IMG/VR virus record: IMGVR_UViG_2703718801_000021
Span: 1-9,473 of that record
Length of the DNA: 9,473 bases
Source of the DNA: a virus
Taxonomy: Duplodnaviria; Heunggongvirae; Uroviricota; Caudoviricetes
Reading direction: 5' to 3' (one strand)
Under the pieces are notes generated by a model, which was not told the origin of the DNA, ran no database searches, and saw only the letters and a list, made by a program, of their open reading frames with translations. Made by a program: the position numbers and the translations under genes. Below are positions 7,753 to 7,800 of this stretch, piece by piece; the stretch's first letter is position 1, and every line of letters starts with the position of its first letter.

Positions 7753-7800
7753 GATGCAATCTCGAAGCCCCTCCTGAGACGGTTGCTTCGGCATTGCATC
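7753..7800 (-). promoter_or_regulatory. Large imperfect hairpin in the N leader, about 14 of 16 bp paired; candidate RNase III-type processing or translational control structure
   Basis: GATGCAATCTCGAAGC (7753-7768) pairs with GCTTCGGCATTGCATC (7785-7800), with one 2-nt mismatch and a 16-nt loop. It lies between the nutL-like element and the N ribosome-binding site. Confidence 0.4.

Follow-up and report, generated by a model that had tools for sequence, protein, structure and literature searches.

A compact helix in the PL-transcript N leader of a mosaic lambdoid prophage, a probable counterpart of the lambda RNase III site

The hairpin at 7800..7753 on the minus strand of the window (by which we mean the whole 9,473-nucleotide stretch analysed, IMG/VR record IMGVR_UViG_2703718801_000021) is probably the apical part of a regulatory helix in the N leader of the PL transcript, and as such the counterpart of the lambda RNase III (rIII) site. 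Judged by its resemblance to other N leaders, the complete helix is an unusually compact form of a known lambdoid control element. The conserved part, probably also the part that is cleaved, appears to sit at and just outside the hairpin base; with its 16 stacked positions, the hairpin as delimited is probably not long enough to serve by itself as an RNase III substrate.

The hairpin and its place in the PL transcript

The window covers the early-left/immunity region of a mosaic lambdoid (Stx-phage-like) prophage, with the leader, N and the cI gene on the minus strand. The cI gene (8774..8073, minus; HTH and Peptidase_S24 domains) is closed by an intrinsic terminator detected by terminator scan (8042-8021, minus), and a consensus scan placed the PL promoter, TTGACT-17-TACTAT, at 7946-7918 (minus). 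The PL transcript most likely starts at A7911, which gives a leader of 184 nt. The start was placed there because the first nine transcribed bases, AUCAGCAGG, match the lambda pL transcript start (10 of the first 12 bases agree), and because cross-phage homology begins at that base: phages that between them have six or more different PL operator/promoter sets become homologous exactly at 7911 (loci L007-L086). The PL start also marks an abrupt mosaic boundary between immunity and N modules. N is preceded by the Shine-Dalgarno sequence (SD) GGGAGG (7738-7733, minus), 5 nt before the AUG at 7727, and encodes 90 aa (7727..7455, minus; PF25694 N_peptide, E 8e-32). This N shares 98.9% identity with that of VT2-Sakai-type Stx1/Stx2 phages, and the leader shares 96% with its VT2-Sakai equivalent.

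Repeat search found two 16-nt arms (7753-7768 and 7785-7800), complementary at 14 of 16 positions (88%) and 16 nt apart; this agrees with the hairpin of the initial annotation, which had about 14 of 16 bp paired and a 16-nt loop. Folding and repeat search together delimit it as 7800..7753 (minus), reading GAUGCAAU-GC-CGAAGC, the loop AACCGUCUCAGGAGGG, and GCUUCG-AG-AUUGCAUC in the minus-strand RNA. The fold has an 8-bp outer stem (7800-7793 with 7760-7753), a 2x2 internal loop (7792-7791 and 7762-7761), a 6-bp apical stem (7790-7785 with 7768-7763) and a 16-nt apical loop (7784-7769) that contains AGGAGG. The apical stem and loop are specific to the window leader type; the outer stem is homologous to a covarying upper stem found at the boxC position elsewhere. 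The hairpin had been said to lie between nutL and the N SD, and it does so: it starts downstream of nutL (7871-7826) and ends at 7753, and 14 nt then lead to GGGAGG at 7738-7733.

The AGGAGG of the apical loop is itself Shine-Dalgarno-like and stands about 45 nt ahead of the start codon of N. Its core, AGG(A/G)(G/A), was retained in every variant seen while the flanking loop bases vary, and AGGAG in the window-type loop could be a further, separate ribosome-contact feature. A short upstream ORF initiated from this AGGAGG was rejected (5-10 nt further on there is neither an AUG nor a GUG start codon), as was a pseudoknot between GGGG of the loop and CACCC (the loop Gs vary, to GGA or GUA).

Constraint on the hairpin as RNA

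The hairpin exceeds what chance would give, and the constraint on it is that of a minus-strand (PL) RNA. A folding-energy calculation, the check proposed in the initial annotation, bore the hairpin out: its minimum free energy (MFE) was -24.6 kcal/mol, compared with -11.5 +/- 2.5 kcal/mol for 200 dinucleotide shuffles (z -5.2), none of which was as stable. Eighteen equal-length natural variants of the window leader were then compared within the type. Only 2 of 28 stem positions of the hairpin varied, both to G.U, versus 10 of 20 unpaired positions (Fisher p = 0.0015; 18 variants), and over the whole helix described below variation touched 6 of 48 paired and 12 of 23 unpaired positions (p = 0.0008). 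Additional variants had C-to-U and A-to-G changes that likewise gave G.U, plus one A.C break. Because G.U pairs exist only in the minus-strand transcript, the constraint acts on the PL RNA. A DNA palindrome or operator was rejected on the same substitutions, which would be A.C on the other strand and are meaningless in duplex DNA.

The window leader was present in 279 phage records and, never below 90% identity, in 763 of 5426 complete E. coli genomes. Its carriers include VT2-Sakai-type Shiga-toxin phages and prophages of O157:H7, EPEC E2348/69 and Nissle 1917.

A longer helix at the N ribosome-binding site

The RNA of 7811-7741 (71 nt) folds as one irregular helix of which the hairpin is the apical two-thirds. 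From the base upwards it consists of 10 bp with one G.A mismatch, a 1-nt purine bulge, 8 bp, the 2x2 loop, 6 bp and the 16-nt loop, 24 bp in all; the 24 pairs with the one mismatch amount to 27 stacked positions, which makes a duplex of at least some two helical turns. On the 5' side of the base, the strand AUAAGCUGUGG (7811-7801, minus) aligns as the homologue of lambda GAAGGCUUUGG, and the 3' strand, CCAAAGUUUAU (7751-7741, minus), holds a CCAAAG that is nearly invariant in lambdoid N leaders. Positions 7803-7801 pair with 7751-7749 (GG/CC plus U-A), and seven further pairs join 7811-7805 with 7747-7741. The single bulged purine at 7752 (minus), between the upper stem and CCAAAG, varies between G and A within the window type; the G.A mismatch, three pairs below the bulge, is unrepaired in the natural variants. 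In the partition function of the full leader, pair probabilities were 0.89-1.0 throughout the long helix except at the G7804/A7748 mismatch.

The predicted pairing extends outwards to the SD. By both MFE and partition function CCAACC (7819-7814, minus) is the partner of the SD and pairs four of its six bases; G7738, G7737, G7734 and G7733 were predicted to be unpaired with a probability of 0.00-0.06 in the folded full leader. Further out, AGAU (7826-7823) pairs with AUCU (7731-7728) in the predicted fold. The same extension, CC with GG, was seen in the folds of HK97, Oslo and SPN9CC. The energy needed to open the SD-AUG region was about 7 kcal/mol in the full leader, versus 3.3-7.5 kcal/mol after in-silico cleavage depending on the chosen 3' end. 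Accessibility of the SD varies with the 3' end that is set because CUUCUCG in N can pair with the SD too, and for this reason it was given no evidential weight; this sequence, in N codons 12-14 (7693-7687, minus), is the complement of CGGGAGG, with which it pairs when the processed mRNA is modelled.

Homology and covariation among N leaders

We folded the leaders of lambda, HK97, a 933W-type Stx2 phage, Oslo, SI8, SPN9CC, HK620, mEpX2, P22 and a Pantoea prophage, along with those of further lambda-type and HK620-type relatives. Almost all leaders examined have the same architecture directly upstream of the SD: (C)UUUGG and an upper strand, an apical domain, the complementary upper strand, a bulged purine, CCAAAG, and about five more pairing bases. 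The window version of the motif is CUGUGG ... G plus CCAAAG. The pattern CUUUGG...purine bulge plus CCAAAG occurred in 32 of the 32 leader types tabulated and in most of a further set; L378-type relatives of lambda N keep the helix and lack the purine bulge.

The upper stem differs completely in sequence between types and is always complementary, in at least 14 versions. Its two strands are GGUGUGUG / CACACACC in lambda, GGUGUGGU / ACCACACC in HK97, GAAAGCGU / GCGCUUUC in SI8, GGUGACGU / GCGUCACC in HK620, ACUGGCGU / GCGCCAGU in P22, and GUUGCAGG / UCUGCAAC, GAUUGGAU / AUCCAAUC and UGUGUGUG / CACACACA in the leaders of loci L304, L426 and L391, respectively. SPN9CC, with GAUGCGAU / AUCGCAUC, differs from the window (GAUGCAAU / AUUGCAUC) by one clean A-U to G-C swap, and the two also have GGGAUGC, GCAACC and CCAAAGUU in common, so that the outer stem of the window hairpin is this same upper stem. 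Written out with the bulge, GGGAUGCGAUG/CAUCGCAUC(A)CC of SPN9CC is recognisably the same as GGGAUGCAAU/AUUGCAUC(G)CC of the window.

In a trimmed alignment of 30 leader types, 91% of the cells were paired as compared with 38-46% for slid partners, a percentage inflated by the picking of 5' strands for best complementarity; the strand picked fell on the conserved UUUGG motif in every case. Eleven of the 19 pairs had changed on both sides among these 30 types. The covariation score was 0.506, and shuffled alignments scored 0.187 +/- 0.015, with none of 500 shuffles reaching the observed value. The innermost 6 bp of the base helix had no compensatory change at all. On this comparison the base of the window helix together with its 8-bp upper stem is homologous to the helix of lambda, HK97/933W, P22, HK620 and others. 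The suggestion that the hairpin is the counterpart of the RNase III-sensitive structure in the lambda N leader is thereby supported, through homology and covariation with lambda and other leaders.

The likeness to the lambda rIII helix comprises the same position in the PL transcript with the same first nine transcribed bases, the base motif (C)UUUGG / purine bulge / CCAAAG, an upper stem at the boxC position, a helix that stops a few nucleotides before the SD, and a segment after boxB that pairs with the translation start region. The two differ in that the apical domain is 90 nt in lambda and 32 nt in the window, and in that the window base has the G.A mismatch and UGUGG for lambda UUUGG. Their upper-stem sequences are unrelated (GAUGCAAU against GGUGUGUG); the outward extension includes the SD in the window, whereas that of lambda includes the AUG, and cleavage of the window helix is a prediction. 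The 32-nt apical domain compares with 42-130 nt in the other leaders. Leaders of the SPN9CC, HK620 and P22-like group share the GCAACC motif of the apical domain with the window, but have there an extra UGCAGCUGCA hairpin and a CCAGA...UCUGG hairpin, and the window type is about 14 nt shorter; it is without one hairpin found in those leaders and has its own 6-bp stem, CGAAGC/GCUUCG, instead. A further parallel is the rrn leader, in which a boxA Nus-factor loading site is likewise followed by a boxC strand; this strand and a distal partner make up a long helix that is an RNase III substrate (PMC10250234). The rrn helix, however, has the 1.5-kb 16S rRNA inside it and functions in ribosome assembly, whereas the window helix encloses 32 nt and precedes a ribosome-binding site (RBS).

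Three HK620-N relatives from IMG/VR (L460, L470 and L478) have 150-200 nt, with a small ORF and its own SD, inserted between the helix and N; in L460 and L470 a second CCAAAG-plus-SD segment adjoins N.

Relation to nutL and nutR

Read from the sequence, nutL consists of boxA GCUCUUUAAACAA (7871-7859, minus), a spacer hairpin GUCGA-ACAC-UCGAC (7857-7844, minus), the linker UACG, and a boxB-like hairpin UGGCU-GAAA-AGCCA (7839-7826, minus); nutL is annotated at the same position in VT2-Sakai. The comparator is nutR, which lies downstream of cro at 9071-9114 (plus) and has boxA, spacer hairpin, UACG and boxB in the same order, the boxA counterpart being CGCUCUUUGUAACAA (9071-9085, plus). Both NUT hairpins are preserved by compensatory changes between the two sites: the spacer hairpin covaries with its nutR copy GGAC-AUUC-GUCC, and the boxB stem is maintained in nutR (UCGCU-GAAA-AGCGA) by a G-C to C-G swap. 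The leaders of HK97 and 933W have the same two-hairpin layout, with a hairpin at the spacer position and then the same UACG linker, and the nutR of H-19B has been described with two hairpins (PMC3526286). A counterpart of 7753-7800 was sought after nutR, and nothing similar was there. The long hairpin is not part of NUT, because it is absent after nutR while boxA, spacer hairpin and boxB occur in both sites. The boxB loop as read is a GAAA tetraloop closed by U-A, compared with the GAAAA/GAAGA pentaloop of lambda; the window N has a phi21-like arginine-rich motif despite this tetraloop.

Predicted RNase III processing

We take the stem in the lambda N leader to be an RNase III site and its cuts to fall at +88/+89 and +197/+198, which on the sequence would presumably be after G88 of GGCUUUGG|GGUG and after C197 of ACC|AAAG. 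An RNase III processing structure between nutL and the N RBS of lambda has reportedly been described by Steege (1987), Kameyama (1991) and Wilson (1997, 2002). Placed in this way, the lambda cuts flank two invariant G-C pairs next to the bulge and leave a 2-nt 3' overhang. This accords with E. coli RNase III in vivo, which cuts both strands to leave 2-nt 3' overhangs, the two pairs between the cuts being usually G-C and bulges giving asymmetric ends (PMC6212723). The invariant GG/CC pairs of the window adjoin the bulge in line with the same rule (PMC6212723), and by homology we predict cuts at 7801|7800 and 7750|7749. The G.A mismatch or the 2x2 loop could weaken or redirect cleavage. A literature search returned no report of RNase III processing of the window leader type or of its influence on translation of N, nor of RNase III/N-leader work on Stx phages.

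In lambda, translation of N is repressed by N together with Nus factors at nutL, and the leader in between has extensive structure (PMC5725501, citing Wilson 1997 and 2002); lambda N mRNA is also under the control of RNase III, and an enzyme mutant that binds but is deficient in cleavage still has an effect (PMC8708148). On the lambda model, host RNase III would bind the window helix and cut both strands around the invariant GG/CC pairs beside the bulge, releasing G7800..C7750, a 51-nt piece made up of the hairpin and three more bases. The N mRNA would then begin at A7749, with a leader of 22 nt before the AUG. Such cutting would part nutL, with its bound N-Nus-RNA polymerase complex, from the N ribosome-binding site, and would take away the strand that pairs with the SD; N autorepression of translation would be relieved, and N synthesis would track host RNase III activity. 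Uncoupling of nutL-bound N from the RBS seems the more likely route than unmasking of the SD, since the modelling does not clearly show SD unmasking by cleavage.

Other explanations for the hairpin

The helix might instead be a structural or translational element that works uncut, with RNase III playing little or no part in this compact variant. The SD would then be masked through CCAACC/GGGAGG, and the helix may compact the 100 nt between nutL and the RBS so that tethered N-Nus blocks ribosome entry. In keeping with this, the SD guanines were predicted to be paired at p of about 0.95 in the full leader, the mismatch and the internal loop interrupt the helix, the structured lambda leader has been argued to compact the nutL-RNAP loop needed for repression (PMC5725501), and the rrn leader-trailer helix matters independently of RNase III (PMC10250234). 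We nevertheless consider it unlikely: the invariant GG/CC pairs and purine bulge match the geometry of RNase III cut sites and the lambda site, and the SD-masking consists of two isolated 2-bp helices, with an opening energy that is similar with or without the upstream strand. Much further down in probability, as very improbable, comes a role in the leader as attenuator or intrinsic terminator, or as an extra N-binding (NUT) element. Either role would suit a stable, GC-containing hairpin that the PL transcript carries beyond nutL, but no U-tract follows the hairpin (its tail is GCCAAAGUUUAUUCGG) and it is not among the hits of the terminator scan; it is missing downstream of nutR, whereas the two NUT hairpins are common to nutL and nutR and covary, and its loop is the most variable part. 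A known prophage sRNA was rejected, as AgvB and AsxR map downstream of PR' and the Pas sRNAs are found close to Q and the lysis genes.

The start of N differs between public records, in which it is given as an AUG inside the hairpin (114 aa; AP005153, L002) or as that of the 90-aa form (AP000422, L001). Were N to start at the AUG at 7799 and have 114 aa, the hairpin would be in coding sequence, and the palindrome would be incidental or would act on translation elongation. The ORF 7799..7455 is indeed open and in frame with N, and AP005153 annotates an N of 345 nt. We give this reading next to no credence. A natural 1-nt loop deletion in several loci shifts the frame and breaks the in-frame upstream ORF, and the hairpin is therefore non-coding; moreover, phage 75/02 Stx has GUG in place of the AUG, there is no SD before 7799 as opposed to GGGAGG 5 nt before AUG 7727, the 90-aa form is the one annotated in VT2-Sakai and RefSeq, and the loop varies without a codon-like pattern. 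The indel and the start-codon variation thus favour the 90-aa N.

A possible alternative fold at the helix base

A small hairpin, CCACA-UAAGC-UGUGG (7815-7801, minus), can form at the base of the helix as an alternative, in which an upstream copy (“a”) of the downstream partner pairs with the 5' strand of the base helix (“b”). Every leader type has such a copy, preceding b (CUUUGG) by 3-9 nt and making a small hairpin possible. Written as a, loop and b, these are UCAAAGC-AGAAG-GCUUUGG in lambda, CCAAAG-UGAA-CUUUGG in HK97, CCAAAG-(9 nt)-CUUUGG in HK620, CCAAAC-(7 nt)-GUUUGG in P22, CCGGAG-(6 nt)-CUUCGG in the Pantoea prophage and CCACA-UAAGC-UGUGG in the window. Where b has diverged, a has changed along with it and the downstream CCAAAG (“a-prime”) is unchanged, which leaves a mismatch in the long helix of the window, P22 and Pantoea types. 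Because b changed with a and not with a-prime in three independent lineages, the small hairpin has apparently been selected, at the cost of this mismatch. Double changes occurred in 3 of the 6 a:b pairs and the covariation score was 0.371 compared with 0.182 for shuffled data (reached in none of 500), to be read as a lead rather than a result given the small sample and the choice of a by complementarity; b:a-prime had no compensation. The a/b/a-prime pattern was also noted for L087, L090, L210, L211, L213 and L005.

For the window, the a:b state (-36.2 kcal/mol) was 6 kcal/mol less stable than the long helix (-42.3 kcal/mol); the a:b hairpin is an element of the MFE fold while the transcript ends before about 7745, i.e., until the 3' strand has been transcribed. 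Tentatively, and we think with the odds against it, the N leader may, instead of holding a static RNase III hairpin, act as a conserved RNA switch with two states. In such a switch, a (CCACA, 7815-7811), transcribed first, would pair with b (UGUGG, 7805-7801) and leave CCAAAG and the SD free; pairing of b with a-prime would complete the RNase III substrate and let CCAACC mask the SD. If so, the choice of fold would gate both RNase III processing and N translation, and it could depend on transcription speed, on N-Nus tethering at nutL, or on RNase III binding.

Significance and further observations

N is the first regulator made upon induction of these prophages. If the helix couples N synthesis to RNase III as in lambda, it would be one input to the speed of lytic commitment and toxin release by Stx prophages. 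The N-leader helix is a well-covarying RNA structure in lambdoid phages of Escherichia, Salmonella and Pantoea and is without an Rfam family; at E <= 1, no Rfam match was obtained for the window, nor for the lambda, HK97, SPN9CC and P22 leaders. The 71-nt compact version would be the simplest natural substrate for dissecting the helix, and the predicted cut sites are exact. The element itself is an expected regulatory element in unusually compact form; the possible switch and the missing curated family are the parts worth following.

Some features elsewhere in the window and in the searches may be recorded here. The 3' end of cI is followed by a CA-rich tract, AACACACAACAAUAA, and then by the intrinsic terminator (8005-8060, minus); the tract is similar to sequences targeted by the GU-rich seed of GcvB, gave no Rfam match and is not AgvB. 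Downstream of N, two more long inverted repeats lie between ORFs (6400-6441 and 6521-6568; arms of 19 and 22 nt, 4-nt spacers), which may serve the PL operon as terminators or as processing sites. Searching genome contigs with N gave only four loci, two of them (L003 and L004; JAJXBQ01) in entries labelled “MAG: Segatella copri”. These two short Segatella copri bin contigs encode this E. coli phage N at 96-99% identity, and most likely represent mis-binned Enterobacteriaceae prophage DNA.
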